From a phage, in NCBI GenBank assembly GCA_014687725.1, contig GCA_014687725.1_4094.1: a stretch of 64,000 bases of DNA; one strand, written 5' to 3'. The notes beneath the pieces were generated by a model. That model did not search any database and was not told where the DNA came from. It was given only the letters and a program-made list of their open reading frames with translations. The translations under genes and the position numbers were made by a program. Positions 671 through 14,263 of the stretch are shown in pieces (the stretch's first letter is position 1; each line of letters opens with the position of its first letter).

Positions 671-673
671 AGT

Positions 674-1839: not shown

Positions 1840-1912
1840 GGCCACCAGCACCGCCTAGAATCGATTCTAACGCATTAAACTGATTATCTGATGCATCGCC
1901 CTAGCTGGTGGC
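1840..1912. repeat. inverted-repeat element with opposed Chi octamers flanking a perfect 14-bp palindrome
   Basis: CCACCAGC 1842-1849, palindrome TAGAATCGATTCTA 1856-1869, GCTGGTGG 1904-1911. Confidence 0.5.
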
Positions 1913-1975
1913 GTTAAGGTCGTTAGAATGCGATTGAGGACGTTTAAAGTATTTTGCAAAAAGTAATAAAAAGTA

Positions 1976-2036
1976 CTTGCACGATTAAGAGATTAGCGTA
2001 TAATGTTTTACATCGAGAGGGGGAAACGGTTCTCCT
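1976..2036 (+). promoter_or_regulatory. class I early promoter + 5'UTR stem-loop cassette
   Basis: -35-like TTGCAC 1977-1982, TATAAT 1999-2004, GGGGGAAACGGTTCTCC hairpin in leader. Confidence 0.55.
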
Positions 2037-2059
2037 TCCAAATCAAAGGAATCAAAACA

Positions 2060-2287
2060 ATGGCTATCGTAATCGCTTATGTAACTGGTACTACTGGCAC
2101 TTCTTCTACTGTTGCTGTAATTACCAACAAGAAAGGTGCGGAATTACATTCTGCAATGGATACCTGGGCGGTAAATGAGTTCGGTCAGTGGGCAAGTGTA
2201 GCATATGTTGAAACCTATCAAGTGCCAACCATTAGCTTAACGGATCTCGGTGTAGATCGTATCCTTTGCCTGGATGAATTAAATTAA
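2060..2287 (+). CDS. hypothetical small protein (75 aa)
   Basis: ATG 2060 with SD AAAGGA; track ORF start 2003 lies in promoter -10/leader. Confidence 0.7.
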   Translation: MAIVIAYVTGTTGTSSTVAVITNKKGAELHSAMDTWAVNEFGQWASVAYVETYQVPTISLTDLGVDRILCLDELN

Positions 2288-2373
2288 AAAAGTACTTGCA
2301 AAGTAAATCAGATAAAGTATAATACATTACATCAAGGGGAGAAATGGTTCTCCCTGATAATGAGGAAACTAAT

Positions 2374-2517
2374 ATGAAAACTTGTCAATGTGGTAAAAAA
2401 TCTATTACTGGTTTAAAGCGGGGCGTTGCTCTTTGCCAGTACCATTATAATTTACAAGTATGGGGTAAAGAATGGGCCGACCAGGTGGAAGCAGCAAAGA
2501 AAGCAAAAAGTAAGTAA
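2374..2517 (+). CDS. Cys-rich small protein (47 aa)
   Basis: ATG with SD GAGGAA behind class I cassette; C-x-C...C-x2-H pattern; below track size cut-off. Confidence 0.55.
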   Translation: MKTCQCGKKSITGLKRGVALCQYHYNLQVWGKEWADQVEAAKKAKSK

Positions 2518-2528
2518 AATTATTATCA

Positions 2529-2566
2529 CAGTACTATTGACATAGATTGATAGTACTGGCATAATA
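2529..2566 (+). promoter_or_regulatory. class II promoter with palindromic -35 region
   Basis: TTGACA 2537-2542, 17-nt spacer, CATAAT 2560-2565; -35 embedded in near-palindrome CAGTACTATTGA..TGATAGTACTG. Confidence 0.55.
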
Positions 2567-2598
2567 GATTTTATCAAGACAACTAAGAGGAAACAATA

Positions 2599-2811
2599 AT
2601 GGCTATCATCACAAAAATCAAAGTAAACAAATCACTGGTTAAGCTGGAAGAAGTGAAAGAAGGTTATAAAGTATCGTGGTGCGGCATGTATCGGATTTTT
2701 ACAGATGTTGACGATGCAATCAATTACTACACTGACACGGTAAAAAACTTTGTTCGTGCTGATGTGGTTATGGCAGTGGCAACACACAAAGCATCGAAAG
2801 AAAGTAAGTAA
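2599..2811 (+). CDS. hypothetical small protein (70 aa)
   Basis: ATG with SD AGAGGAA. Confidence 0.7.
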   Translation: MAIITKIKVNKSLVKLEEVKEGYKVSWCGMYRIFTDVDDAINYYTDTVKNFVRADVVMAVATHKASKESK

Positions 2812-2822
2812 AAATATTATCA

Positions 2823-2860
2823 CAGTACTATTGACATAGTTTGATAGTACTGGCATAATA
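2823..2860 (+). promoter_or_regulatory. class II promoter (duplicate of 2529-2566 block)
   Basis: TTGACA 2831-2836, CATAAT 2854-2859; ~80-nt block incl. leader nearly identical to 2508-2590. Confidence 0.55.
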
Positions 2861-2892
2861 GATTTTATCAAGACAACTAAGAGGAAATTAAA

Positions 2893-3237
2893 ATGGCTAA
2901 TATCAACACTATCGCAAAACAAAATATCAACCTGTCTTCTGTTGAAGTTGTACATATTGCCGCTCGGCGTTGGTTCCAGGCTTCATATGGTAACACTTAT
3001 TTCTCTTTAAGTGTAGACGTAGAAATTGATGGTAATTTTATTGAAGTAGTAAACGTGCCGTTCCAATATGGATACGGGGATCACTTTGACACTGTAGCAA
3101 TGGAAGAATTTAGCAAGGTTATTAATATGGAAGATAAAGAGTTTTTACGCGGTTCTTATCTTTCCCGTTTTTGCCGTGACAATAATATCACTGTTTACAG
3201 TTCGGTAACTGATGTTAAACGCAAAAAAGATCTTTAA
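2893..3237 (+). CDS. hypothetical protein (114 aa)
   Basis: ATG with SD AGAGGAA. Confidence 0.7.
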   Translation: MANINTIAKQNINLSSVEVVHIAARRWFQASYGNTYFSLSVDVEIDGNFIEVVNVPFQYGYGDHFDTVAMEEFSKVINMEDKEFLRGSYLSRFCRDNNITVYSSVTDVKRKKDL

Positions 3238-3317
3238 TTAGCTTTACTTTATGCAGATACTTTGATATAGTGTCTGCATAGGGGAAAGAAATTAAATTAA
3301 CTTAAGAGGATAGTATA

Positions 3318-3587
3318 ATGAAAAATATCAGTACTTTAATTGATGCAGGTACACATGTTCGGCGGTCTATGGTTGCAACCAGTACTACAAAACAAGTAGC
3401 GAGCGGTTATCTTGTATTTGTGCACGATGGTAAACTCCTGGAACGTTCAATCAATTTTGATGTTAAAAACAATTGCCGTTTTATTATCTTTAAGCGTGAA
3501 CAATATAAAATTGATTTACCAGCGAAGCCCATAAGCGGGGCGTATAACGTCTATTCATTGTTTGAGCGTCAACCATACACCTATTAA
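3318..3587 (+). CDS. hypothetical protein (89 aa)
   Basis: ATG with SD AAGAGGA. Confidence 0.65.
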   Translation: MKNISTLIDAGTHVRRSMVATSTTKQVASGYLVFVHDGKLLERSINFDVKNNCRFIIFKREQYKIDLPAKPISGAYNVYSLFERQPYTY

Positions 3588-3638
3588 TCAAAACATCGTT
3601 AGCGGTCGATTTAGGCCGCTTATATTGGGGATTATACC

Positions 3639-3911
3639 ATGAACGTTAATCAAGTACTGAATGAGATCGAAAGCATCATTAAACCGATGAAGCGTACTGA
3701 TGCTATGTTAACACCGGAAGAATGCCGCCTTTATGAGCGTTACAGCGTCGAACAAGTCCAGGCAATGGCTATGGCTACGCCAGCCGTTAAACCGCCTGAG
3801 AATGCGTTACAGGACGTTACAGGGGATTATATCATCAATCCAGTACTAGGGAAGATGGCTGCAATCACCGAAGATCAACAAGACTACTTAAGCCAGTACT
3901 TAAAAGGTTAA
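3639..3911 (+). CDS. hypothetical protein (90 aa)
   Basis: ATG preceded by G-rich SD-like TTGGGGA; hairpin upstream. Confidence 0.65.
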   Translation: MNVNQVLNEIESIIKPMKRTDAMLTPEECRLYERYSVEQVQAMAMATPAVKPPENALQDVTGDYIINPVLGKMAAITEDQQDYLSQYLKG

Positions 3912-3916
3912 TTAAT

Positions 3917-4126
3917 ATGCTTACTGTACAGGATAAGATCGACATCTTAAAGGTTAATATGTATGTGATTGATGCAGTACCTGGTAAAGTATTTGCATAC
4001 GATGACACCACTGTAAGCGATTTCTACTATAGCCAGGACGTGGGGGATCTTTCTGTACAGTCGGTTATTGAAAACGTAGTTAATGCAGCGTATGAGCATT
4101 TACTTTCAAATAGTACTTGCAATTAG
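3917..4126 (+). CDS. hypothetical protein (69 aa)
   Basis: ATG 6 nt after previous stop, SD AAAAGG. Confidence 0.6.
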   Translation: MLTVQDKIDILKVNMYVIDAVPGKVFAYDDTTVSDFYYSQDVGDLSVQSVIENVVNAAYEHLLSNSTCN

Positions 4127-4176
4127 TTTTTAAACGCGTATAATGTTTTACATGAAGGGGAGAAATGATTCTCCCC
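4116..4176 (+). promoter_or_regulatory. class I early promoter + 5'UTR stem-loop cassette
   Basis: TTGCAA 4117-4122, TATAAT 4139-4144, hairpin GGGGAGAAATGATTCTCCCC 4157-4176. Confidence 0.6.
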
Positions 4177-4195
4177 ACTAATTAAGGAATATGAA

Positions 4196-4342
4196 ATGAA
4201 AGCATCAAAAAAGAGTAATACTAAGAAAGCACGTTCACCTTTCGCTGGGGTATTCCCTTTACGTTTCGTTGATGAAGTGGTTTCCTACCCGCCTGGCCTT
4301 ACTCCTGAGATGGTAGAAAGTTTGCGTAAATCTAAAAAATAA
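4196..4342 (+). CDS. basic small protein (48 aa)
   Basis: ATG with SD AAGGAA; below track size cut-off. Confidence 0.55.
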   Translation: MKASKKSNTKKARSPFAGVFPLRFVDEVVSYPPGLTPEMVESLRKSKK

Positions 4343-4344
4343 TA

Positions 4345-4405
4345 CTTGCAATTAGTTTTTAGTACTGTATAATAGTTTACATGAAGGGGAGAAATAGTTC
4401 TCCCC
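4345..4405 (+). promoter_or_regulatory. class I early promoter + 5'UTR stem-loop cassette
   Basis: TTGCAA 4346-4351, TATAAT 4368-4373, hairpin GGGGAGAAATAGTTCTCCCC 4386-4405. Confidence 0.6.
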
Positions 4406-4423
4406 AATAACAGGAGAAACAAA

Positions 4424-4576
4424 ATGAAACAATATAATGCTCGGATGGATGTAACTATCGGTAACGGCAAAGGTCAATTCTCTTTCAGTACTCGCAAAAG
4501 TTATACAGAAAACTTCCTGCGTAATTGTGCACTGACCGCCGCACAAATTAAACATTACTTTCAGGCTAAAAAATGA
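4424..4576 (+). CDS. hypothetical small protein (50 aa)
   Basis: ATG with SD AGGAGA; below track cut-off. Confidence 0.55.
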   Translation: MKQYNARMDVTIGNGKGQFSFSTRKSYTENFLRNCALTAAQIKHYFQAKK

Positions 4577-4662
4577 AATCATTAGCTTATTACAGTTCGG
4601 CCCTGGTCGGTGCATTGATCGCGGCATTGTTAGTAACCTATCTATTCTTTATGGTGATTTAA
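4573..4662 (+). CDS. 29-aa hydrophobic peptide (one predicted TM helix)
   Basis: ATGA overlap with upstream stop; MKSLAYYSSALVGALIAALLVTYLFFMVI. Confidence 0.4.
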   Translation: MKSLAYYSSALVGALIAALLVTYLFFMVI

Positions 4663-4800
4663 ATGAATCCTAACGGTTTAATTTACAGTACTCCTAAAAC
4701 GAAAGCAGATAAAGCGAAAGCACGTAAAGCGAAAGTAAAGGAGTACATCAAGCAAGGCATGACGCGAAAGGCGGCAATTCTAAAAGCTAAAAATAAATGA
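4663..4800 (+). CDS. lysine-rich small protein (45 aa)
   Basis: ATG directly after upstream TAA; followed by R1 terminator. Confidence 0.45.
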   Translation: MNPNGLIYSTPKTKADKAKARKAKVKEYIKQGMTRKAAILKAKNK

Positions 4801-4808
4801 AAAAAAAA

Positions 4809-4895
4809 GTGGTTGACTTCGGTCAGCCATTTTGCTATTATGTATTCATTGAGAGATAGCTCACTAGCCCACAGGGTGCATAAGTGTATCTATTG
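4809..4895 (+). repeat. R1 terminator-promoter cassette, copy A (divergent)
   Basis: hairpin TGGTTGACTTCGGTCAGCCA 4810-4829 + T-run; TTGACT 4813-4818 inside hairpin, 17-nt spacer, TATTAT 4836-4841; 3' box AGCCCACAGGGTGCATAAGTGTATCTATTG. Confidence 0.55.
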
Positions 4896-4944
4896 TATAA
4901 TGATTGAGTACTGAAAACTATTTTAAAGTATTTGATAAAAAGTA

Positions 4945-5004
4945 CTTGCATACTATCTCAATAGGCGTATAATGTTTTACATCGCAAGGGGAAACGGTTT
5001 CCCC
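4945..5004 (+). promoter_or_regulatory. class I early promoter + 5'UTR stem-loop cassette
   Basis: CTTGCA 4945-4950, TATAAT 4968-4973, hairpin GGGGAAACGGTTTCCCC 4988-5004. Confidence 0.6.
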
Positions 5005-5024
5005 TGGTAATAAGGAAACGAATC

Positions 5025-5366
5025 ATGACTATTGCAATTGCTCAATCTAACTTTGAAAACGAAATCATCGCTCAGGCACTGCGTTTAAATGATGGTCGGG
5101 CCGAAATCAATTACGGTTTCAATAGTGGTGGATGTGAAAAATATCAGTACTTTATAACTGCTGATGGCGGTGTCCTGGGCATCAATACCGTTATTGTAAA
5201 CATTCAGAAAATTAATTTCAATGATCCAGACGATAGCCAGTTTTACATCACGGGCGTAGACGTGAACTATGAGGATGACTCACTAACTGATGATCACACT
5301 GGTGAGAAGTTAGAAAGTGCATACGGTGAAGATGATTATCAGTCCGGTCCAGAAGATTTCGAATAA
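5025..5366 (+). CDS. hypothetical acidic protein (113 aa)
   Basis: ATG with SD AAGGAA. Confidence 0.7.
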   Translation: MTIAIAQSNFENEIIAQALRLNDGRAEINYGFNSGGCEKYQYFITADGGVLGINTVIVNIQKINFNDPDDSQFYITGVDVNYEDDSLTDDHTGEKLESAYGEDDYQSGPEDFE

Positions 5367-5458
5367 TATTAAAAAATAGTTTGACAATAGTTTTTAGTAC
5401 TGTATAATAGTTTACATGAAGGGGAGAAATGATTCTCCCCACTAAGAGGAAAAACAAA

Positions 5459-5671
5459 ATGGCTAATATCCGCACTGTACTGAAAAATGCAAAACAAGTT
5501 TTATTTTCTGATCATGAAAATTTCAACAAGGATATCACAGGTGTTCGGAATATCAAAGATGTAAAAAGTGTTATGGGTATCTATTGCAATATGAAACGTG
5601 TTGGCACGTTCGGCGATAAAGTACTATACCAGGCAGGGGATTACAATTTTACACTGACTATCATTAACTAA
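5459..5671 (+). CDS. hypothetical small protein (70 aa)
   Basis: ATG 5459 with SD AGAGGA; track start 5429 lies inside leader hairpin. Confidence 0.7.
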   Translation: MANIRTVLKNAKQVLFSDHENFNKDITGVRNIKDVKSVMGIYCNMKRVGTFGDKVLYQAGDYNFTLTIIN

Positions 5672-5684
5672 AAATATTATCACA

Positions 5685-5720
5685 GTACTATTGACAACGT
5701 TTGATAGTACTGGCATAATA
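5685..5720 (+). promoter_or_regulatory. class II palindromic promoter
   Basis: TTGACA 5691-5696, CATAAT 5714-5719; CAGTACTATTGACA..TGATAGTACTG. Confidence 0.55.
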
Positions 5721-5762
5721 ACTTTTATCAAGACAACGCATATTAATTTAAGGAATACTAAA

Positions 5763-5942
5763 ATGGCTATTATCGCAAAAACTGAAATCATCGGCCTGGA
5801 TTCTATCATCATGACGTTTGAAGATCAAAAAGGGATGTATGTAGTTTCCTATGGTGATTATGTTCGGGAGTATGAAACGGTAGACGAAGCCTTTGAAAGT
5901 TACATTCGCCAGGTGAATAAAGCATACGACGACTACCGCTAA
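5763..5942 (+). CDS. hypothetical small protein (59 aa)
   Basis: ATG 5763 with SD AAGGAA; track ORF started in promoter. Confidence 0.6.
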   Translation: MAIIAKTEIIGLDSIIMTFEDQKGMYVVSYGDYVREYETVDEAFESYIRQVNKAYDDYR

Positions 5943-5961
5943 AATATATTACCAGTACTAT

Positions 5962-5997
5962 TAAATCTATTGACAATGATTGATAGTACAGTATAAT
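5962..5997 (+). promoter_or_regulatory. class II palindromic promoter
   Basis: TTGACA 5970-5975, TATAAT 5992-5997. Confidence 0.5.
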
Positions 5998-6041
5998 AAG
6001 TTTTATAAACAGTAGTTAACTTAACCTAAGAGAGAAACAAA

Positions 6042-6185
6042 ATGATCGCACTGGATTCATTCATCGACGCAGTACTGGCAAAAACTGGCGAGGATCTGAC
6101 CGCAGAACAATACGCGATGATCGAGCAATGCCAGCAAAACGGTAAATCGGTGAAAGATACTGTTAAGATTATCCGCAAGATGTAA
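6042..6185 (+). CDS. hypothetical small protein (47 aa)
   Basis: ATG with SD AAGAGAGA; below track cut-off. Confidence 0.55.
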   Translation: MIALDSFIDAVLAKTGEDLTAEQYAMIEQCQQNGKSVKDTVKIIRKM

Positions 6186-6191
6186 GAATAT

Positions 6192-6220
6192 AGCCCACTG
6201 GTTAACGCTGGTGGGCTTTA
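6192..6220 (+). terminator. terminator-like hairpin containing a Chi octamer
   Basis: stem AGCCCAC/GTGGGCT with 12-nt loop, weak T-tract; GCTGGTGG 6207-6214. Confidence 0.4.
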
Positions 6221-6290
6221 ATCATTTACCCTATACAATGCCAGTACTAAACCGTTTAACTCGTTAGAATGCATTACAGGACGTTTAACA

Positions 6291-6488
6291 ATGATTAGCA
6301 TGAAATCAGTACAAAAACAAATTGATACATTATCAAAAATTAAACGTAAACAATACTCATTAGAATATACAATCAATGGTAACTATCATCTAATGAAAGA
6401 GAATAATTTCATAGTCATTGATGAATCATTGCAAGTTATTAGTATAGTACTGAAAGCATTAATCAATGACAGAAAAAAGTTAAAATAA
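6291..6488 (+). CDS. hypothetical small protein (65 aa), weak
   Basis: Track ORF; poor SD, very AT-rich. Confidence 0.35.
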   Translation: MISMKSVQKQIDTLSKIKRKQYSLEYTINGNYHLMKENNFIVIDESLQVISIVLKALINDRKKLK

Positions 6489-6492
6489 TCTA

Positions 6493-6521
6493 TTGACAAA
6501 TTATGCCAGTACTGGCATAAT
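6493..6521 (+). promoter_or_regulatory. class II-type promoter
   Basis: TTGACA 6493-6498, 17-nt spacer, CATAAT 6516-6521. Confidence 0.55.
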
Positions 6522-6583
6522 ACTTACATCAAGACGAGAACGTCACTAACCCATAGGGTGCACAAATGTAGCTGTCTAATATT

Positions 6584-6614
6584 GATCAAAAAATGATCTG
6601 ATCAATACTTGATC
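6584..6614. promoter_or_regulatory. GATC cluster within repeated TGATCA motifs (4 GATC in 31 bp)
   Basis: GATC at 6584, 6595, 6600, 6611; sits in a 330-bp gene-free region. Confidence 0.5.
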
Positions 6615-6819
6615 AATTTGCGTAAAGTAGTATAATTCTATGCAGTTGGTTAGACGAAAGGTTATGATTAGTAGTGGAAGTGTATAAAAATTTTCATGGT
6701 GTGGTGATCCGCACATATGGGGATGAATATGTCGTGTCGTATGGATTGGAAAAAGTAAGAACAAGTAATATACTTGTCGCGTTACAGTACTATAGTATTT
6801 TTATAATGAGGTTAAAATA

Positions 6820-7077
6820 ATGGCTGTAGGATTCACGAAAGATGGGGCCGAGCAAGACGAGATTAACGCAGTGATTCAGGCCGCTGTTAACCACGCTAGA
6901 ACGCAAATTAACGCACAAATAGAATCACTGATACATTGCCTCGACTGCGGCGATATAATCCCTGAGAAACGACGCCAGGCCGTTAAGGGATGTAAGTACT
7001 GCATAACTTGCCAGGAGGATCATGATAGTACTTTTAAACGTCCCCCGCGTAATTGTTGGCATAGATCTATGAGATAA
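6820..7077 (+). CDS. DksA/TraR-family C4 zinc-finger protein
   Basis: CLDCGDIIPEKRRQAVKGCKYC matches the TraR/DksA zinc-finger signature (CxxC...GxxIPxxRRxA...CxxC). Confidence 0.75.
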   Translation: MAVGFTKDGAEQDEINAVIQAAVNHARTQINAQIESLIHCLDCGDIIPEKRRQAVKGCKYCITCQEDHDSTFKRPPRNCWHRSMR

Positions 7078-7083
7078 AAAGTA

Positions 7084-7111
7084 TTGACAGTACTGAAAGA
7101 TAGTGTATAAT
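7084..7111 (+). promoter_or_regulatory. sigma70-like promoter
   Basis: TTGACA 7084-7089, 16-nt spacer, TATAAT 7106-7111. Confidence 0.5.
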
Positions 7112-7140
7112 ATTTTATATCTTAACTGAGGATTGAAATC

Positions 7141-7497
7141 ATGGGAATACAACATATCACGCGTACTACTGACAATGGCGAGATCACTGGCTATCAAGTA
7201 CAGGGCAAAGTAGCACAATTGCAGTACTGGTTTGTTAAACGTGGAATCATTGCACCGGATCTTGATTATGACCGTGTAGCGTTTATTGATTCTCTTTATG
7301 TTGATCCTGATAGTCGGGGCAATGGTGAAGGTAACGAATTAATGAATGCCTTTATTGATGCCGCCGATGATTCAGATTGTATCATTTTAGAATGCGATAC
7401 GGGAGAAGATAACGCCTTTAATCTTAAAGAATGGTACGAAGGTTTCGGATTCGAGGTACTGATCGATAGTGAATATCCTATCATGATTTTATCATAG
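7141..7497 (+). CDS. GNAT-family acetyltransferase-like protein (118 aa)
   Basis: VDPDSRGNGEGNELMNAF resembles the acetyl-CoA-binding R/QxxGxG/A loop; family call tentative. Confidence 0.6.
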   Translation: MGIQHITRTTDNGEITGYQVQGKVAQLQYWFVKRGIIAPDLDYDRVAFIDSLYVDPDSRGNGEGNELMNAFIDAADDSDCIILECDTGEDNAFNLKEWYEGFGFEVLIDSEYPIMILS

Positions 7498-7575
7498 TAC
7501 TTGCATTTAGTTTTCAGTACTGTTATAGTACTTACATCAAGGGGAAACATCTTCCCCTACTAAGAGGAAATAAAA

Positions 7576-7764
7576 ATGGAAAACTTATCAAGTATTTTAG
7601 TACAAGATGATTTCGGTAATCCTGGAAGTGCTATCATTGTTCGGGGTAATAAAGCAACATTTGTTATTGCTGGTGGACCTGTACAGCGTAGCATTAAAAA
7701 TAATGCTGTTACCATTAATAATGTACGCTATCGCTTAGATAAAGAATTGATTCATAAACTTTAA
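7576..7764 (+). CDS. hypothetical small protein (62 aa)
   Basis: ATG with SD AAGAGGAA behind class I cassette. Confidence 0.65.
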   Translation: MENLSSILVQDDFGNPGSAIIVRGNKATFVIAGGPVQRSIKNNAVTINNVRYRLDKELIHKL

Positions 7765-7848
7765 AAAGTATTTGACAATAGATTATAGTACTGTATAATA
7801 AGTTACATGAAGGGGTGAAATGATTCTCCCCACTAAGAGGAAAGAAAA

Positions 7849-8061: not shown

Positions 8062-8078
8062 TATAAGGAGTACAGCTT

Positions 8079-8341: not shown

Positions 8342-8487
8342 AAGAATTCTTATTCGAAGTAGTGTTTCAAGGTGTCGGTAGTAACCAACTGATTCGCTCA
8401 AGTGGTTACAATGTTAACCAGGCATGGAATAACATTAAACAAATGTACCCGAACGCTATCACCTATCGCAACCCGAAACAAGTTTAA
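8338..8487 (+). CDS. hypothetical small protein (49 aa)
   Basis: ATGA overlap with upstream stop; followed by R1 terminator. Confidence 0.5.
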   Translation: MKEFLFEVVFQGVGSNQLIRSSGYNVNQAWNNIKQMYPNAITYRNPKQV

Positions 8488-8494
8488 AAATAAT

Positions 8495-8585
8495 TGAAAA
8501 AGGGATTGACTCCGGTCAGTCCCTTTGCTATTATATACGCATAGAAACAAATCAGCCCACAGGGTGCATAAATGTATCTATTGTT
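8495..8585 (+). repeat. R1 terminator-promoter cassette, copy B
   Basis: A-run + hairpin GGGATTGACTCCGGTCAGTCCC 8502-8523 + T-run; TTGACT 8506-8511, 17-nt spacer, TATTAT 8529-8534; 3' box ..AGCCCACAGGGTGCATAAATGTATCTATTG. Confidence 0.6.
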
Positions 8586-8812
8586 TGCTGGTGGCTAGTA
8601 CTATCAAGTACTGAAAACTATTTTTAAAAAAGTACTTGCATTGTACTTAGAATCAAGTATAATGTTTTACATCAGGACGGGGAACGAAACAAGTAACCCC
8701 GTTAAGTAGTCCAGGAGTAAGACATAAGAAAACCTCCCCTGATAAAATAGTTTGACAATAGAAAGTAAACGAGTATAATACTTACATCAACCACTGATAA
8801 GGAAACATTAAA

Positions 8813-9088
8813 ATGCGGATTCTACTGACAGCTAACGAAATCGAACAAGTACTGACTACTAACCTGGAAGACTGGAAACGTGAAGCAGATATCCAGGCGG
8901 TTCAACGGCTTAACGATGAGTTAACGCCGGATGACTTAAGCAAGATTGTAGATCCTCAATTCTACGAAGATATCCACGACACCGCGTTAAGCGTCGAGGA
9001 TGTACTAGATAAGCACTACATTGATATTGATTTGCAGGTTTACGGTCGTAAAAACTTTATCACTATTCACGACATTTACAATAATTAA
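8813..9088 (+). CDS. hypothetical protein (91 aa)
   Basis: ATG with SD AAGGAA; two promoters upstream. Confidence 0.7.
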   Translation: MRILLTANEIEQVLTTNLEDWKREADIQAVQRLNDELTPDDLSKIVDPQFYEDIHDTALSVEDVLDKHYIDIDLQVYGRKNFITIHDIYNN

Positions 9089-9174
9089 GTATTGACAAAG
9101 TATCTTAGTACTGTATAATAGTTTACATCGAGAGGGGGAATGGTTCCCCTCCTAACAAAGAGAGAGAAATAAAA

Positions 9175-9357
9175 ATGGCTAAATGCACTATCTGTAAGAA
9201 AGAAATCGTATTAGTTCCAAGTGCCCGTGAACGTGCCGCTCGGTTCGGTGGCAAACCGTCAGACTATACAAAAATGTTTACTGTCCATGCAGCTTGCCAG
9301 GTAGCAAAACGTTCACAAGAAAGCGTAGAATTAATGCGTAAACTTTCCAAAAAATAA
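9175..9357 (+). CDS. hypothetical small protein (60 aa), Cys-containing
   Basis: ATG with SD AGAGAGA behind class I cassette. Confidence 0.7.
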   Translation: MAKCTICKKEIVLVPSARERAARFGGKPSDYTKMFTVHAACQVAKRSQESVELMRKLSKK

Positions 9358-9445
9358 GTATTGACAAAGTATCTTAGTACTGTATAATAGTTTACATCAA
9401 GTGAGGGGAAACGGTTCCCCTCCTAACAAAGAGAGAGAAATAAAA

Positions 9446-9769
9446 ATGGCTATGATCCTTGCCCAGAAAGTAGAACTGAAAATTGTAACCTCCTTTGACA
9501 TTAAAGTTAATCGGTGGACTGATTCACACGGCAATACTTACCACTCTTGCTACGTGTCTGCGTTAATTGGTGATCGTTGGGAAGACCTGGGACATGAAAC
9601 CTTTACATACGGTTACGGCACACAAGGCGAATACACGGGCTTGGAGATCATTAAAGAAACCGTTATAGGTTTCAACCCGAAAGAAACAGTTATTCACCGC
9701 ATCGAGGAAGAGATCAACAAAGAAATAACAGTTCGATACTACGATGTAAAACGTAAGAAAGATATGTAA
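9446..9769 (+). CDS. hypothetical protein (107 aa)
   Basis: ATG 9446; track start 9401 is a GTG inside the leader hairpin; cassette 9355-9445 duplicates 9084-9174. Confidence 0.7.
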   Translation: MAMILAQKVELKIVTSFDIKVNRWTDSHGNTYHSCYVSALIGDRWEDLGHETFTYGYGTQGEYTGLEIIKETVIGFNPKETVIHRIEEEINKEITVRYYDVKRKKDM

Positions 9770-9855
9770 TAGAATCCATTTAAAGTACTATTTGACATTG
9801 CCCAGATAGTACTTTATAATAGACTCTAACTTGTAGTACTAACTCAACTAATAGG

Positions 9856-10260
9856 ATGTATACCATGATTACTAAATTCTACGCTACCCGTGAAGCTGCC
9901 CGTATTGTTGCACGCGAGGAAGGAGCAGCATTTAAAGACATGGGCAAAGATGCACCGAAAGGCCAACGCTGGGCCGTACAGTTCAAAGAGATCTCTGATA
10001 TTGTGAATTCACCTGAGCCAGTACTAACAGCAGCAGAACTAAAACGAGCGGATTTACTGGCGTCAATACTTGATGCACAAGATGAGTTTATCGCTGATTC
10101 TGATATCAAAGTACAGACAAACCATACCGCTTGGACTCACGCGGATCACCTGGCAAACCTGAAGCGTCCAAGTGAACTGGTACGCAACCAGAAAGAGATC
10201 CGACACGACCGTAAGGGTAATCGTGTAACAGTATACAGTAAACGCCGCCAGGTTATCTAA
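9856..10260 (+). CDS. hypothetical protein (134 aa)
   Basis: Track ORF; alternative ATG at 9865; GC-richer than neighbours. Confidence 0.7.
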   Translation: MYTMITKFYATREAARIVAREEGAAFKDMGKDAPKGQRWAVQFKEISDIVNSPEPVLTAAELKRADLLASILDAQDEFIADSDIKVQTNHTAWTHADHLANLKRPSELVRNQKEIRHDRKGNRVTVYSKRRQVI

Positions 10261-10282
10261 TAACTTGCAGTACTAACAACAC

Positions 10283-10308
10283 GGCGGGATCAGTTCCCGC
10301 CTTTTTTA
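10283..10308 (+). terminator. rho-independent terminator
   Basis: stem GGCGGGA/TCCCGCC + T6. Confidence 0.8.
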
Positions 10309-10321
10309 TAGGACAAACAAA

Positions 10322-10576
10322 ATGATTAAGGTTCAACTATATAAAGATAATATCTTGCGGGTACACTATAAAGCCCCTCAGAGAATCATCACAAAGGCCG
10401 TACAGCTTGCTAATGAGTTTATTAATGGTAACCTATTACCAAGGAAGTTAAGCAACGGAAAACTGCGTGTAATCGATGTAGACACTAACAACAGAATAGT
10501 AATTGAGAACACAGGAAAGATAAACCTATATGAACACCAACAATATAATAAGAAAATAAAACTAATATCACGTTGA
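10322..10576 (+). CDS. hypothetical protein (84 aa)
   Basis: ATG with SD AGGA. Confidence 0.6.
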   Translation: MIKVQLYKDNILRVHYKAPQRIITKAVQLANEFINGNLLPRKLSNGKLRVIDVDTNNRIVIENTGKINLYEHQQYNKKIKLISR

Positions 10577-10629
10577 CAGTACTCAATTGTTTTAGTACTA
10601 TGTACATATACCAACACGGGAGAAACAAA

Positions 10630-10848
10630 ATGAAATTATCTAAAATCGAAAAGAAAACTATTGATGAAGCAGTTAAGCACGGTTATACCTTTCGTAATGA
10701 TTCACATTTTACCAATTTTCAACAAGGGTATCGTACTATTAAAAAACTCATTGACAAAGGTTTATTAGTTGAAGTCAATAACGGCAATGGTATTGAGTAT
10801 CAACCAACACAAGACGCATTTTATTTTAAGAAATATAATATTATCTAA
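10630..10848 (+). CDS. hypothetical protein (72 aa)
   Basis: ATG 10630 with SD GGGAGAAA; track start 10573 is the TTG of the promoter -35. Confidence 0.65.
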   Translation: MKLSKIEKKTIDEAVKHGYTFRNDSHFTNFQQGYRTIKKLIDKGLLVEVNNGNGIEYQPTQDAFYFKKYNII

Positions 10849-10905
10849 TTGACAGTACTCAAATGTTTTAGTACTATATGTACATACCAACACGGGGAAA
10901 ACAAA

Positions 10906-11148
10906 ATGATTACTTTAGAAAAACGTATCAAAGAAACTACATCGCTGGTGGAACTGTTAACAGTACTGAAATGCCGTACTACTCGGTTTAGTACACCGGA
11001 CTTTATTAATATGGTTGATGTTAACGGTCGTTATCGCATTGCAGTAGAACAAGGAACAGCGAAAGTATTCAGTACTAAAAACACTAAGGAAGTGATTCAT
11101 GCTGTAAGTGTTAAAAAAGTAGTTGCCATTGATAGTAAAGTACTGTAA
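10906..11148 (+). CDS. hypothetical protein (80 aa)
   Basis: ATG 10906; promoter/leader block 10849-10905 duplicates 10563-10629. Confidence 0.65.
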   Translation: MITLEKRIKETTSLVELLTVLKCRTTRFSTPDFINMVDVNGRYRIAVEQGTAKVFSTKNTKEVIHAVSVKKVVAIDSKVL

Positions 11149-11179
11149 GATAGTTTCATTAACTCAAGGAGAACATGCA

Positions 11180-11764
11180 ATGCGTAATTATACTAAATTC
11201 ATCCGTACCCTGTCAGAAATGGAAACCAACAAAGAGATCCTTTCAGCTTGTCGGTTAGCTGGTCTGGAGATCATCGGTGCGGGTTCTTCCCGTATTGTAT
11301 TCGCTTTAAATGATCGGTTAGTGATCAAGGTCGCGAATTGTGATGCGGGTGTAGAACAAAATGAAACTGAATGTAAGGTATGGAATTTTTTAGATTATGA
11401 CCGCCCTCAATTGAAACAGTACTTTGCAAAGGTGCATATGCATTTATGCGATCCTGATAATATGTTTATCGTTATGGATCGGTTGAGTACTGCAAGTAAA
11501 GGCAGTGTAAAGCACGTAAACGCGTGCAATGAATTAAAGTACAATATTAAACGTAATGCCATTGAACGCCAGCACCGCTTTGCTGATGCACTACAACACG
11601 TTGATGATACATTATCAACACTAACGATAAGAGATATCAGAAAACAGAATATCGGCCAGGATCGTAATGGCCTTATTAAAGTACTTGATTACGGTTTAAC
11701 CCGCAATATCTGGAATCAGTACTATAAAAAGCGTGATGTAGAAGCAAGTAAGGTAACACGATAA
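11180..11764 (+). CDS. protein kinase-like protein (eukaryote-type kinase fold)
   Basis: Gly-rich loop GAGSSRIVF, VIKVA lysine, catalytic-loop-like IRDIRKQN, DFG-like DYG; ATG with SD AAGGAG. Confidence 0.75.
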   Translation: MRNYTKFIRTLSEMETNKEILSACRLAGLEIIGAGSSRIVFALNDRLVIKVANCDAGVEQNETECKVWNFLDYDRPQLKQYFAKVHMHLCDPDNMFIVMDRLSTASKGSVKHVNACNELKYNIKRNAIERQHRFADALQHVDDTLSTLTIRDIRKQNIGQDRNGLIKVLDYGLTRNIWNQYYKKRDVEASKVTR

Positions 11765-11771
11765 AAAAGAT

Positions 11772-11862
11772 TAAAAAAGGGATTGACTCCGGTCAGTCCC
11801 TTTGCTATTATATATTCATTGAGAGATAACTCACTGACCCATAGGGTGCGGAAGTGTATCTA
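11772..11862 (+). repeat. R1 terminator-promoter cassette, copy C
   Basis: hairpin 11779-11800; TTGACT 11783-11788, TATTAT 11806-11811. Confidence 0.6.
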
Positions 11863-11984
11863 TTATATAAGTATTCAGTACTGAAAACTATTTTAAAAAA
11901 GTACTTGCAATGTACTTAGAATCAAGTATAATGTTTTACATAGAGAGGGGGAAATGGTTCTCCCTGGTAATAAGGAATAAAATC

Positions 11985-12206
11985 ATGACTACAATGACTT
12001 GCATTTACGCTTCCAATCTTCTGAATGATGCGGCCTTTAATGTTGATTCAGAATATCAATGTTATCGGGATGAAAATAAAAAAGTTTTTGTAGTTGATAA
12101 TAATGGTTTCCATATTGAATTACAATCCGGTTTCACTGGTGTTGATGGTAAATCAGTGTGGGGCGTACAGGATGATAAAGGCACATATCATTTTAAACGT
12201 AATTAA
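11985..12206 (+). CDS. hypothetical small protein (73 aa)
   Basis: ATG 11985 with SD AAGGAA; track start 11910 is inside promoter/leader. Confidence 0.7.
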   Translation: MTTMTCIYASNLLNDAAFNVDSEYQCYRDENKKVFVVDNNGFHIELQSGFTGVDGKSVWGVQDDKGTYHFKRN

Positions 12207-12290
12207 GTATTGACAAAGTATATCAGTACTGTATAATAGTTTACATCAAGGGGAGAATAGTTCTCCCCGATACTAAAAGGAAACAAAATT

Positions 12291-12563
12291 ATGTCCAGCT
12301 ACTCCGCTACTATGATCATTAAAGATATGAACGGTAATCCTACTTCTGCTGGTGGATCATTTGGAAACATTAATTTAGATGGTCGGTTATCCATGCAATC
12401 AGCCATCGATGCAGCGAAAGAAGTTTTTAAGAATGAATGTACTGTTAGTAAGCTGGATTATATGGGATTCGCTATCGAGAAAACTAATCGTTTTGTGAAC
12501 TACAAAAATCCACTGATGATTGATACTAACCTGAAAGCTAACGAAGTGGGGTACTTATTATGA
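12291..12563 (+). CDS. hypothetical protein (90 aa)
   Basis: ATG with SD AAAGGAA behind class I cassette. Confidence 0.7.
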   Translation: MSSYSATMIIKDMNGNPTSAGGSFGNINLDGRLSMQSAIDAAKEVFKNECTVSKLDYMGFAIEKTNRFVNYKNPLMIDTNLKANEVGYLL

Positions 12564-12751
12564 CAGTAGAAGAAGTTAAAAAAGTACTGGCAGTACTACG
12601 CTATCATAATCATTGCAAGGTGAAGAATGATCCTGATTATGTTGATTCATCCCTGGAGGAAGACACATTAAACGCAATAAGCCATATGCAAACATTAGCA
12701 AAGCGTATGACCGAAAAGAATAGACCGGACTATATCGGAAATAAAATTTAA
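12560..12751 (+). CDS. hypothetical small protein (63 aa)
   Basis: ATGA overlap with upstream stop. Confidence 0.6.
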   Translation: MTVEEVKKVLAVLRYHNHCKVKNDPDYVDSSLEEDTLNAISHMQTLAKRMTEKNRPDYIGNKI

Positions 12752-12837
12752 AAAGTACTTGCATTGTAGTTAGATTAACGTATAATGTTTTACATAGAGC
12801 GGGGGAACTATTCCCCCGCCAGTCCAGGAGATACACC

Positions 12838-13101
12838 ATGAACACTATCGAAATCACTATCAATGCACACGTATACGACAACGTAGTACTGCAAACTACT
12901 ATGACCGCTAATGATACCAGTACTTTGCGGAATACTGTTATTAGTGCCGTATGTGCCGCTATCGGTGATGTCGCCCTGGAAAATGCAGAACACATCAACA
13001 ACGGTTTCACTATGTGCAAACGTGATAACGCAAAACATATCATCGTAGAAGGTTACGGCGGTGTAGAATATAATCTTTATATGAAAAAAGTACTTGCATA
13101 A
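12838..13101 (+). CDS. hypothetical protein (87 aa)
   Basis: ATG with SD AGGAGA behind class I cassette. Confidence 0.7.
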   Translation: MNTIEITINAHVYDNVVLQTTMTANDTSTLRNTVISAVCAAIGDVALENAEHINNGFTMCKRDNAKHIIVEGYGGVEYNLYMKKVLA

Positions 13102-13168
13102 TAACTAAAACAAAGTATAATGTTTTGCATAGGGGGAGATATCCTCCCCCACTAAAAGGAGTAATAAA

Positions 13169-13393
13169 ATGGCTAACTTTGATGAACTGATGCGGGAAGT
13201 AGCTAACCTGGCAGAAGAGAAGAAATCATTCGATTCTATCTATAACACCGCTCACCGTGATTCAGTACTGGCATGTACTCAGGATCAAAAAGATGAACTA
13301 ATCGCCACATATCATGAAGCATGGAAGTACTACCGCCAATGGGAGAAAGAAGAAAGCGAGTCTACCATCAACGGCATCAATAATCTAATCTAA
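13169..13393 (+). CDS. hypothetical small protein (74 aa)
   Basis: ATG with SD AAAGGAG behind class I cassette. Confidence 0.7.
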   Translation: MANFDELMREVANLAEEKKSFDSIYNTAHRDSVLACTQDQKDELIATYHEAWKYYRQWEKEESESTINGINNLI

Positions 13394-13469
13394 AAGTTTT
13401 ATTTCAGTACTATTGACATAGCTTGATAGTACTGATGTAATAACTTTACTAACTACAAGGGGAAACATA

Positions 13470-13727
13470 ATGGAACAGTTCACACAATATCGGGTAAATC
13501 CTCAAGCTATGGCCTACGTAGAAGACCATAAAACGTTACCAGTACTAACACCAATTAAAGGCCATATCTATCGTGCAATGTCATGGAATACGGCCCAGGA
13601 TGGATATACTACCGCTGGCGTGGGTATGTATTGCGGGAATGGTGAATGGTTTGATCCAAATAATCCGGTAGCCATTGACAGTACTGAAAAAATGAAATGG
13701 GCCGACTACATCGAAGATATTTCATAA
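13470..13727 (+). CDS. hypothetical protein (85 aa)
   Basis: ATG with SD AAGGGGAA behind class II promoter (TTGACA 13413-13418). Confidence 0.7.
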   Translation: MEQFTQYRVNPQAMAYVEDHKTLPVLTPIKGHIYRAMSWNTAQDGYTTAGVGMYCGNGEWFDPNNPVAIDSTEKMKWADYIEDIS

Positions 13728-13816
13728 AACTATTTGACAGTACTAACCAGTAATGTATAATGTTTTACATAGAGCGGGGGAATAGTTCTCCCGCCAATAG
13801 TTTGGAGTAAAACATT

Positions 13817-14017
13817 ATGTCTATCGCTATCGCCCTGGTTGAAGTACTGAAAGAAGCTAAAGCCAACCTTATCGATGTACAGATTAAGGAATTACAAAAT
13901 GGTTTAATCGGCTGTACTTGTACCGCTGGTGGAGCGGCAGACTATCGGGAATTCGAATCACTTGAATCGATGGTCCGTTATCTTACCATGATCGTAGAAG
14001 ATTGGAGAATCATCTAA
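13817..14017 (+). CDS. hypothetical small protein (66 aa)
   Basis: ATG with SD TTGGAG behind class I cassette. Confidence 0.7.
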   Translation: MSIAIALVEVLKEAKANLIDVQIKELQNGLIGCTCTAGGAADYREFESLESMVRYLTMIVEDWRII

Positions 14018-14028
14018 CAAAAAAGAAT

Positions 14029-14115
14029 AAAAAAAGGGATTGACTCCGGTCAGTCCCTTTGCTATTATATACGCATAGACAAAAACTAGCCCACTGGGTG
14101 CAGGAGTGTATCTAA
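14029..14115 (+). repeat. R1 terminator-promoter cassette, copy D
   Basis: hairpin 14036-14057; TTGACT 14040-14045, TATTAT 14063-14068. Confidence 0.6.
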
Positions 14116-14263
14116 AATATATAGTTAATAACGGTGAGTAACTATCTGCTGGTGGGGTGAAAACTATTAATAAAAAAAGTATTGACAAAGTATATCAGTA
14201 CTGCAATAATGTATCTCGTAGGGCGGCAATGGTGCGACGGCCCACAAAGTTAGGAGATTCAAA

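Follow-up and report, generated by a model that had tools for sequence, protein, structure and literature searches.

What accounts for the accumulation of Chi sites in the early DNA of this phage? Chi is an eight-base signal that switches RecBCD, an enzyme that degrades DNA from its ends, to recombination. In a 64,000-nucleotide stretch of phage DNA (the window), we found exact copies of the Chi octamer GCTGGTGG at nine positions on the plus strand (starts 1904, 6207, 7669, 8587, 10944, 12348, 13925, 14148 and 62986) and two on the minus strand (1842 and 54345). Nine of these 11 copies, eight plus and one minus, lie within the first 15-16 kb, in DNA that by homology belongs to a direct terminal repeat (DTR). 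The other two, at 54345..54352 (minus) and 62986..62993 (plus), are isolated and outside the DTR, and were counted as background. An initial annotation of this DNA had given every one of these coordinates correctly except the plus-strand site at 10944, which it missed.

The excess of the octamer is large by every measure used. Shuffled versions of the window contained a mean of 0.37 Chi octamers over both strands and a maximum of three, and none of 100 shuffles reached the observed 11. Strand-specific Markov models of order 0-4, computed on positions 1-16000, predict 0.08-0.36 plus-strand and 0.01-0.07 minus-strand copies against the eight and one observed. With the Chi copies masked, the plus-strand expectation in the first 16 kb is 0.05-0.15; in the window's share of the DTR the exact octamer exceeds this masked expectation 55- to 170-fold. 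Counting the octamer and its complement against Markov expectation, as had been proposed, thus yields eight plus-strand copies against 0.05-0.36, and the enrichment claimed for the first 15 kb is stronger than was stated. Chi ranks second in over-representation among the 11,399 octamers of the first 16 kb (P 7e-10), behind a promoter -10 word alone. Strong over-representation in this region is shared by other short words such as AGTACT.

The excess is particular to the exact octamer. Each of the eight GCTGGTG heptamers in the first 16 kb has G as its next base, and every single-mismatch variant of Chi is found there 0-1 times. Pooled over four lineages, 33 exact plus-strand copies compare with a combined 21 for the 24 possible single-mismatch words, and a search over the same lineages for a conserved flank around Chi found none.

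Judged by its closest relatives, which share 93-98% identity with it and were isolated on E. coli, the window's phage is an Asteriusvirus-type E. coli jumbo phage. Together with the excess of the E. coli-type octamer, these relatives agree with the enterobacterial host suggested earlier. Recognition of GCTGGTGG by E. coli RecBCD is established (PMC12315714), and the phage's own host is assigned through its relatives. Positions 1..15515 (plus strand) correspond by homology to the inner ~74% of a ~21-kb DTR and contain an array of small plus-strand ORFs, every one having a strong promoter of the sigma-70 type and a hairpin in its 5' UTR. Window positions 1-16851 are collinear with positions 5313-22864 of vB_Ec-M-J, whose record annotates the DTR as 1-21525; window position 1 (vB_Ec-M-J position 5313) would therefore lie ~5.3 kb from the left physical end. 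A second relative, fEgEco12, has a DTR of 20,993 bp defined by PhageTerm, with termini confirmed by restriction digests. Its two DTR copies are identical, and every Chi site of the window's repeat part maps into them. The mappings to both genomes place the inner DTR boundary at ~15,515. The window contains a single repeat copy, and we infer a RaK2-like long DTR in its own phage from homology to, and collinearity with, a repeat of determined termini. What had been labelled an early region is thus better described as a long direct terminal repeat, with the enrichment ending at its inner boundary, and this changes the mechanistic reading.

Chi enrichment is confined to the DTR. In the complete genome of EC22.5-2, the 21.3-kb DTR equivalent carries nine plus-strand and two minus-strand copies (expected 0.1-0.4 and 0.05-0.09), and the remaining 330.7 kb is near background, with seven and ten (expected about 4.7 and 4.5). 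Nine of the 16 plus-strand sites thus fall within 6% of the genome (chance 8e-8). Chi density in the repeat is one per ~1.7-1.9 kb, compared with one per 4.6 kb in the E. coli chromosome (PMC12315714). A density above both expectation and the host chromosome, as in P1- or LLS-class phages that exploit RecBCD and Chi, is found inside the repeat only.

Such an excess might in principle arise without function, from base composition, Ala-Gly-Gly codon usage (GCT GGT GGN) or repeat amplification. Three coding copies do use preferred-looking Ala-Gly-Gly codons, as the initial annotation had read them: 7669..7676 (GCT GGT GGA; ORF 7576-7764), 12348..12355 (ORF 12291-12563) and 13925..13932 (ORF 13817-14017), the last of which, in the right-hand repeat copy, would lie ~1.6 kb inward of the right physical end. 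The site at 10944..10951, in an ORF ending at 11148, is read in another frame (tCG CTG GTG Gaa, Ser-Leu-Val-Glu). The remaining four plus-strand sites of the repeat (1904, 6207, 8587 and 14148) are intergenic, as had been noted, but their placement in repeat elements holds only for 8587 and 14148. The first of these (8587..8594) lies 7 nt past repeat copy 8486-8580, with the next early promoter ~40 nt downstream. The second (14148..14155) lies between repeat copy 14020-14114 and a promoter at 14182-14210, and is the outermost Chi, with the right physical end predicted ~1.37 kb away. Both come after copies of one repeat family, but at different offsets, and two to three further copies lack Chi, which lies outside the repeat consensus; repeat amplification therefore does not account for the excess. 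The strand ratio agrees with compositional skew, but local Markov models to order 4, masked or not, predict far less than one copy. Words that neighbour Chi show no enrichment, and Chi counts elsewhere in the genome, where the coding style is the same, are at background. Half of the plus-strand copies are intergenic, against ~26% of the region, and the pattern recurs independently in other genera. An origin without function is already contradicted by these statistics and comparisons, and we give it practically no credence.

Conservation of the sites points in the same direction. Each of the eight plus-strand sites is intact in all four relatives examined (32 of 32 orthologues), including 7669, around which 35% of flanking alignment columns vary. 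The minus-strand site at 1842 is kept in three of the four and lost in ph0011, which reads CCACTAGC. Across five Asteriusvirus genomes, none of the 64 Chi columns varies, compared with 16.5% of flank columns; by this measure, the DTR octamers are under purifying selection. The same clustering appears in four other genera or lineages: Klebsiella phage fENko-Kae01 has 12 plus-strand and two minus-strand copies in its PhageTerm-defined DTR, and Serratia phage BF (6+/0-), XbC2 (7+/2-) and RaK2 (8+/1-) show comparable clusters, with the DNA beside the cluster at background in all four. The Chi positions in these phages are non-homologous, and several lie in promoter spacers. The invariant columns and the recurrent clustering support the earlier suggestion that the octamer is selected.

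Selection could nonetheless act on something other than RecBCD recognition. An inverted repeat with a 9-bp stem joins two of the sites: its left arm, GCCACCAGC (1841-1849), holds the minus-strand Chi at 1842..1849, and its right arm, GCTGGTGGC (1904-1912), the intergenic plus-strand Chi at 1904..1911. The intergenic Chi at 6207..6214 occupies the 3' arm of a strong hairpin at 6192-6217, AGCCCACTGG-TTAAC-GCTGGTGGGCT, directly past a stop codon (predicted fold -19.1 kcal/mol, z -3.8). Since the 5' arm pairs via two G-U wobbles, the complementary strand of this hairpin carries no Chi. fENko-Kae01 has a similar Chi hairpin at 19354. With one copy forming a hairpin arm and two an inverted repeat, the word could be part of an RNA structure, or a target for some DNA- or RNA-binding protein of phage or host origin that acts on the early region, its identity with Chi being coincidental. 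All plus-strand copies lie on the transcribed strand of early units dependent on host RNA polymerase, so that GCUGGUGG would be present in early RNAs, and AGTACT and other short words are over-represented alongside it. However, only one of the four intergenic contexts folds better than shuffles (the fold at 8587, for example, is predicted to be no more stable than they are), and the contexts are mixed (two coding frames, promoter spacers, hairpins and loops), with no flank conserved among them. The word is the host Chi in five lineages, all of them isolated on Enterobacterales or related to phages of that order. Moreover, minus-strand copies are enriched and sorted to the opposite end, which fits a DNA-end-directed enzyme better than an RNA signal. 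We consider recognition by a factor other than RecBCD improbable.

The arrangement of the sites relative to the physical ends bears directly on RecBCD. In fEgEco12, plus-strand sites lie 1.4, 1.6, 3.2, 5.1, 7.4, 8.7, 9.6, 10.1, 14.3 and 20.4 kb from the right end, and minus-strand sites 0.58 and 6.6 kb from the left end. Over five lineages, 30 of 43 plus-strand sites fall in the right half of the repeat (P 0.007) and six of seven minus-strand sites in the left. The positions of the two classes differ in a Mann-Whitney test (p 0.001 for the five lineages, 0.006 for the two with defined DTRs), in which only seven sites are minus-strand and the repeat boundaries of three lineages are inferred. 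Checked against the genome ends, plus-strand sites thus face the right end and minus-strand sites the left, the orientation in which Chi acts on RecBCD entering from a double-strand end. The strand bias in the initial annotation stands as a count (8+/1-), but not as an excess over the compositional skew (G>C) of the strand that is transcribed: that skew predicts a plus-strand share of 0.69-0.80, and the pooled sites divide 35:6 (P 0.015-0.29). Because the 8:1 ratio falls within this prediction, only the positional test argues for orientation-specific selection. Minus-strand Chi is enriched over expectation about as much as plus-strand Chi, so selection from one direction, as previously proposed, is too simple a description.

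From the sites, their enrichment, confinement and conservation, and their orientation to the ends, we infer RecBCD action, RecA loading and repeat-by-repeat recombination. We think it reasonably probable that these octamers work as Chi sites and that selection maintains them in the ~21-kb DTR, where they serve recombination between its two copies. Once injected, the linear genome would offer host RecBCD a double-strand end on either side. On entry from the right, the enzyme would meet 8-10 correctly oriented plus-strand Chi sites, the first ~1.4 kb in. Arriving from the left, it would meet the minus-strand site at 1842, which would be active in that direction, and a Chi palindrome ~0.6 kb from the end, a position outside the window. 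At Chi, RecBCD would cease degrading the 3'-ended strand and load RecA. Since the terminal repeat would be the sole sequence with a homologous partner in a single infecting genome, the 3' tails could pair with the repeat copy at the opposite end, by invasion or by annealing. Such events would produce circular genomes or concatemers, and would remove the ends from RecBCD before any phage protein need be made. Protein capping of the virion DNA ends, which might make Chi irrelevant, would count against this mechanism.

The array might instead act as end protection or a decoy, attenuating or inactivating RecBCD until early proteins are made, with recombination not the selected outcome. RecBCD recognizes a single Chi with a probability of ~30%, and an enzyme traversing 8-10 successive sites would almost certainly respond to one of them (1-0.7^8 = 94%). 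Plus-strand Chi sites are also most closely spaced near the right physical end, and for later stages the phage could draw on recombination genes of its own. The T5 literature stresses the exposure of the first-entering end before phage proteins exist (bioRxiv 10.1101/866236). Protection alone, however, explains neither why enrichment stops exactly at the inner repeat boundary nor why sites 14-20 kb from the end are conserved. Linear DNA in vivo is saved by Chi only through RecA-dependent recombination with a homologous partner (Subramaniam and Smith, bioRxiv 10.1101/2021.07.08.451572). We therefore regard protection as the selected outcome as unlikely. Chi sites near the ends might also limit CRISPR spacer acquisition by shortening the stretch of DNA sampled through RecBCD products that feed Cas1-Cas2. 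In many hosts of these phages, type I-E adaptation is inactive or absent, making this selective force weak and intermittent. Chi lowers spacer acquisition, in which RecBCD takes part (discussed in bioRxiv 10.1101/2021.07.08.451572), and the cluster does lie near the ends, but its confinement to the repeat and deep conservation would be left unexplained. A role in limiting spacer acquisition is compatible with repeat-by-repeat recombination; as the explanation of the array we consider it very improbable.

The closest analogues of the array are in phage P1 and the lambdoid phage LLS. P1 (like P7 and D6) carries about 50 Chi sites, dense beside pac where terminal redundancy falls, and its growth needs host RecBCD and RecA (bioRxiv 10.1101/2021.07.08.451572; PMC12315714); it has been proposed that P1 circularizes by Chi-assisted recombination between its terminal repeats (bioRxiv 10.1101/2021.07.08.451572). 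As in P1, Chi is denser here than in E. coli, is concentrated in terminally repeated DNA and occurs in both orientations, which would serve RecBCD from either end, and the proposed outcome is repeat-by-repeat recombination of a single infecting genome. P1, however, is temperate, with headful packaging, variable permuted redundancy and Cre-lox, whereas the present jumbo phage is virulent, has a 350-kb genome and ends in exact repeats of a fixed 21 kb, with enrichment strictly limited to them and the remainder of its genome at background. Our searches found no report of a Chi array in a terminal repeat in the jumbo-phage literature, and no published test of RecBCD- or RecA-dependent growth for Asteriusvirus and its relatives.

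LLS belongs to a lambdoid class with no Rec module and high Chi (Zheng et al., Genome Res 2025, PMC12315714). It too has a Chi cluster at a terminus, mostly oriented for RecBCD from the right end (20/23 in LLS), with Chi among the most frequent octamers and an excess read as selection for using host RecBCD. LLS differs in its cos ends, its lack of a long repeat and its genome-wide spread of Chi; it has neither recombination genes nor a RecBCD inhibitor, and RecBCD has been shown to enhance its growth. The jumbo phages, by contrast, encode RecA/UvsX-like, UvsY-like and gp46/47-like proteins (supplement of PMC13070987), and for this reason do not fit the lambdoid rule that high Chi accompanies the absence of a phage recombination module and RecBCD inhibitor, a point that weighs against the proposed use of host RecBCD.

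The first-step-transfer region of T5, a phage without sequence relation to this one, is likewise a long exact terminal repeat (10 kb) with the earliest genes, transcribed by host RNA polymerase, and how its first-entering end escapes RecBCD before phage proteins appear is unsolved (bioRxiv 10.1101/866236), a problem that this phage would share. The T5 repeat has two plus-strand Chi sites (8127 and 8689), a weak signal, and none in the next 40 kb; unlike here, its pre-early genes form two divergent blocks, with an injection stop signal and nicks. About 75% of Chi sites in the E. coli chromosome are co-oriented with replication (bioRxiv 10.1101/2021.07.08.451572), and the identical octamer is in excess on the G-rich strand, co-oriented with transcription, as in the phage. 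The chromosomal excess is genome-wide, modest and attributed partly to codon usage, whereas the phage excess, at 25-170-fold, is local, has half of its copies between genes and stops at the limits of the terminal repeat. A terminal repeat packed with conserved Chi sites in this way suggests that the phage probably uses host RecBCD to rescue and join its own genome ends.

A search of both strands recovered 11 copies of the Chi octamer GCTGGTGG, the signal for host RecBCD, in the window: nine on the plus strand (1904, 6207, 7669, 8587, 10944, 12348, 13925, 14148 and 62986) and two on the minus strand (1842 and 54345). The initial annotation had listed all of these except 10944, and its count of seven plus-strand sites within the first 15 kb thus becomes eight. 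Its view that Chi lies far above chance expectation holds: dinucleotide-preserving shuffles predict 0.37 copies on both strands summed, with none of 100 shuffles reaching 11, and strand-specific Markov models of order 0-4 predict 0.08-0.36 plus-strand and 0.01-0.07 minus-strand copies for positions 1-16000, against eight observed on the plus strand. Masking Chi in the Markov fit, so that its own sub-words were not inflated, brings the plus-strand expectation for the putative terminal-repeat part of the window (see below) down to 0.05-0.15. Ranked by over-representation, Chi is second among the 11,399 octamers of the first 16 kb (8 versus 0.28 expected, P = 7e-10), behind only a promoter -10 word. 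In the same interval GCTGGTG never occurs without a following G, nor CTGGTGG without a preceding G, and one-mismatch neighbors of Chi number 0-1 copies each. The excess is thus real and specific to the exact octamer.

The first 15.5 kb of the window is a dense plus-strand array of small ORFs, each preceded by a sigma-70-type promoter close to consensus and by a conserved hairpin in the 5' UTR. Four of the clustered plus-strand Chi sites are intergenic (1904, 6207, 8587 and 14148) and the remaining four are coding. At 7669, 12348 and 13925 the octamer is read as GCT GGT GGN (Ala-Gly-Gly), as the initial annotation had noted, and at 10944 it is read in a different frame (Ser-Leu-Val-Glu). The further claim that four sites lie in intergenic repeat elements is only loosely true: 8587 and 14148 adjoin copies of a ~95-nt repeat, which they follow at differing offsets, whereas 6207 supplies the 3' side of a strong hairpin (6192-6217; z = -3.8 versus shuffles) and 1904 pairs with minus-strand 1842 as the arms of an inverted repeat. 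We rejected hitch-hiking on repeats as the source of Chi, since no repeat consensus includes the octamer and the copies at 4795 and 11763 and a related one at 6543 are without it. Because the Chi flanks in the window are otherwise unrelated to each other, repeat amplification is not the cause of the excess. The idea that all intergenic Chi are hairpin arms was likewise dropped: only 6192-6217 beats shuffles, and the contexts of 8587, 14148 and 1842/1904 do not. Searches for structured RNA returned no Rfam match at gathering thresholds and no tRNA by ARAGORN.

Other elements recur in this array. One repeat family (4795-4947, 8486-8600, 11763-11917 and 14020-14160, with a related core at 6543-6573) consists of a 12-bp-stem hairpin (AAAGGGATTGACTCCGGTCAGTCCCTTT) containing a -35 hexamer, a TATTAT -10, and an ORF-less stretch of 60-100 nt with a conserved core, RCCCAYWGGGTGC...GTGTATCT, to which Rfam gives no match; the family members are candidates for small-RNA genes or for regulatory sites. 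A hairpin of the form GGGGAGAAATGGTTCTCCCC lies a few bases 3' of the -10 after nearly every early promoter in window 1-15500, followed by a ribosome-binding site (e.g., 2335-2355, 4156-4176, 5411-5431 and 11945-11966), and could be an RNA-stabilizing or regulatory leader. The palindromic octamer CAGTACTG (core AGTACT) has 47 copies in the window versus 6.3 expected, 16 of them within the first 16 kb, and in the terminal repeats of fEgEco12 (40 copies) and XbC2 (28) no octamer is more over-represented; AAAGTACT is among the most over-represented in those of fENko-Kae01 (35) and BF (37). The AGTACT-core palindrome (e.g., window 4351-4378, 5395-5402 and 7786-7793) sits just 5' of the -35 and just 5' of the -10 in early promoters.

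The window is 93-98% identical to Asteriusvirus E. coli jumbo phages (among them G17, slurp01, CRJP21 and fEgEco12). The record of vB_Ec-M-J annotates a direct terminal repeat at 1-21,525; window position 1 corresponds to its position 5,313, and the alignment is collinear through the repeat boundary. For fEgEco12, termini called by PhageTerm and confirmed by restriction digestion define a repeat of 20,993 bp (PMC13070987), and we found the two copies in its record to be identical. The PhageTerm repeats of Sharanji and fENko-Kae01 measure 20,668 and 19,736 bp. Both mappings, to vB_Ec-M-J and to fEgEco12, put the inner boundary at window ~15,515, which would place all nine clustered Chi sites inside the terminal repeat, the last of them ~1.4 kb short of its inner edge. 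By homology, window 1-~15,515 would be terminal repeat, with one copy in the window. G+C falls from 38% to 31-33% at the boundary. Beyond it (window 15585-20000 and further) lie tandem arrays of paralogous ORFs of ~70 aa that overlap by 4 nt at their start and stop codons and lack promoters of their own, in repeat families spaced ~210-270 nt.

A complete genome shows how closely Chi keeps to this repeat. We assembled and scanned the 351,992-bp genome of the relative EC22.5-2. Its repeat-equivalent (29,754-51,030; 21.3 kb) holds nine plus- and two minus-strand Chi (expected 0.12-0.36 and 0.05-0.09), and the remaining 330.7 kb holds seven and ten (expected ~4.7 and ~4.5 under order 3-4 models). 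Every other 21-kb interval has at most five sites, and the probability that 9 of 16 plus-strand Chi land in 6% of the genome is 8e-8. At one site per 1.7-1.9 kb, Chi is denser in the repeat than in the E. coli chromosome (one per 4.6 kb; PMC12315714), despite a repeat G+C content of only 38%. Elsewhere in EC22.5-2, ~20 kb ahead of the repeat, a block of minus-strand genes contains three minus-strand Chi at 9277, 9535 and 9790 (258 and 255 bp apart), probably in tandem paralogues.

Comparison of five Asteriusvirus genomes (the window, vB_Ec-M-J, EC22.5-2, fEgEco12 and ph0011) supports selection on the octamer, as initially suggested. None of the window's eight clustered plus-strand Chi is broken in any of the four relatives (32 of 32 kept), and their flanks are 89-100% identical. 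Multiple alignments show 536 of 3,240 flank columns (16.5%) to be variable versus 0 of 64 columns within Chi, giving P ~1e-5, or ~2e-3 with the lowest local flank rate of ~9%. Some turnover does occur: minus-strand Chi 1842 is gone in ph0011, and fEgEco12 has an extra plus-strand Chi where vB_Ec-M-J has GCTGATGG.

Chi clusters recur in other lineages at non-homologous positions, with neighboring DNA at background. Klebsiella phage fENko-Kae01 (~29% ANI to Asteriusvirus) carries 12 plus- and two minus-strand sites in its 19,736-bp PhageTerm repeat and one of each in the next 30 kb; Serratia phage BF (Eneladusvirus) carries six and none in its homologous terminal ~20 kb, then none and one in 30 kb; XbC2 (Mimasvirus; OP292654.1) carries seven and two in its terminal ~17.5 kb (1-17550), then one and two in 32 kb; and Klebsiella phage RaK2 (Alcyoneusvirus) carries eight and one in a promoter-rich ~20-kb block, with one plus-strand site adjacent on one side and none in 20 kb on the other. 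Among 33 pooled non-homologous plus-strand sites there is no flank conservation, and these 33 exact words compare with 21 occurrences of all 24 one-mismatch neighbors summed. Several sites in these lineages fall in early-promoter spacers, between the -35 and -10 hexamers, as would follow from selection on the octamer itself at any place where the sequence can vary freely. A reader of the octamer other than RecBCD is unlikely: the word is identical to the enteric octamer in five lineages, and its copies share no conserved flank. Chi differs in other hosts, being GCTGGCGC in Pseudomonas, AGCGG in Bacillus and GCGCGTG in Lactococcus. XbC2, recorded as a phage of Xanthomonas vesicatoria and assigned to the same genus as Cronobacter phage GAP32, was considered as a negative control with a different Chi, but it carries enteric-type Chi too and cannot serve as one; either its natural host recognizes enteric Chi, or the recorded host needs a second look.

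Plus-strand Chi would be active for RecBCD entering at the right physical end of the virion DNA, and minus-strand Chi for RecBCD entering at the left. In fEgEco12, the ten plus-strand sites lie 1.37, 1.59, 3.2, 5.1, 7.4, 8.7, 9.6, 10.1, 14.3 and 20.4 kb from the right end, and the two minus-strand sites 0.58 and 6.6 kb from the left end. The leftmost Chi pair, beyond the window and ~0.5-0.6 kb from the left end, forms a perfect palindrome, CCACCAGC-N4-GCTGGTGG, found in Asteriusvirus and fENko-Kae01 (588-607 in record L001, 30331-30350 in EC22.5-2, 484-503 in L010 and 578-597 in L057). Its stems are conserved and its loops differ: ACAA in vB_Ec-M-J, the reverse complement TTGT in EC22.5-2, and TTAA in Kae01. 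An IMG/VR scan for the palindrome gave only 121Q and 45 unrelated contigs and thus did not enlarge the sample.

The initial annotation read the strand ratio as evidence for orientation-specific selection, and here it went too far; it also lacked the terminal-repeat context. Its reading of Chi sites, an enteric host and selection is supported in substance. The pooled ratio is 35 plus to 6 minus, while the G>C skew of the transcribed strand alone predicts a plus share of 0.69-0.80, so that 35:6 is not clearly above compositional expectation (P = 0.015-0.29, depending on model order). As an explanation of the Chi excess a compositional artefact is unlikely; plus- and minus-strand Chi are each ~20-40-fold above their own expectation. 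We therefore set the strand ratio aside and related position to orientation. Of 43 plus-strand Chi, 30 fall in the right half of the repeat (P = 0.007), and of seven minus-strand Chi six fall in the left half, a separation with Mann-Whitney p = 0.001 over five lineages, in which minus-strand sites are few and three repeat boundaries are inferred, and p = 0.006 in the two phages with defined repeats. Each orientation is thus nearer the end at which RecBCD would recognize it.

Work on T5 indicates that the ends of an infecting genome are exposed to RecBCD before any phage protein exists (bioRxiv 10.1101/866236). Under a pure end-protection or decoy model, the main rival explanation, the Chi array would attenuate RecBCD until early proteins appear. 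Subramaniam and Smith argue, however, that Chi rescues linear DNA only via RecA-dependent recombination with a homologue, and proposed that P1 circularizes using the Chi-dense DNA of its terminal redundancy (bioRxiv 10.1101/2021.07.08.451572). The only homologous sequence available to a lone genome is its terminal repeat, which would explain why enrichment stops at the repeat boundary. In the recombinational model, which we propose as the more probable, RecBCD entering from the right end would meet 8-10 active Chi; each is recognized with a probability of approximately 30%, giving cumulative recognition above 90%. From the left end it would meet two minus-strand Chi. The resulting RecA-coated 3' tails would be complementary across the repeat and could pair with the other copy by invasion or annealing, so that circles or concatemers form and the ends disappear. 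This sequence of RecBCD, Chi and RecA action is our inference from site arrangement. In its full form, which we consider less likely than not, the model would make the long repeat of RaK2-like jumbo phages a protein-independent means of hijacking RecBCD. Orientation-sorted Chi arrays would direct the resection of both genome ends, leaving complementary 3' tails that are coated with RecA and span the repeat, and would turn the host's main anti-linear-DNA nuclease into a circularization or concatemerization enzyme for the phage. Chi might also bring a side benefit by limiting CRISPR adaptation.

P1 and the lambdoid phage LLS offer the nearest parallels; the 23 Chi of LLS are clustered terminally, 20 of them in active orientation (PMC12315714). 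Unlike LLS, the jumbo phages encode their own RecA/UvsX-, UvsY- and gp46/47-like proteins and so depart from the "no Rec module, high Chi" pattern, and their Chi excess is local rather than genome-wide. In T5 (NC_005859.1), the classical long-repeat coliphage, the 10.2-kb repeat has two plus-strand Chi (8127 and 8689) and the 40 kb that follow have none, which hints weakly at the same theme. [quoted passage not shown] Full-text literature searches turned up no account of Chi clusters in jumbo phages or direct terminal repeats.

In practice, the Chi array could mark terminal repeats in unfinished jumbo-phage assemblies and hint at host type from sequence alone, as for the "Xanthomonas" phage XbC2 with its enteric-type Chi; mining the repeats of phages from other hosts could reveal new Chi sequences. 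The array also carries the idea that phages exploit host Chi beyond temperate P1 and the lambdoid phages, to jumbo phages that are virulent and have their own recombination genes. If RecBCD is used rather than inhibited, these phages would evade systems triggered by RecBCD block, such as retron Ec48-type guards and Gabija, the latter proposed to be so triggered (PMC12407980). A clade-wide, repeat-confined Chi array offers a concrete, testable answer to how long-repeat phages survive RecBCD during the first seconds, when no phage protein has yet been made, and hijacking of RecBCD by the repeat, if true, would answer the same question for T5-like long-repeat phages.
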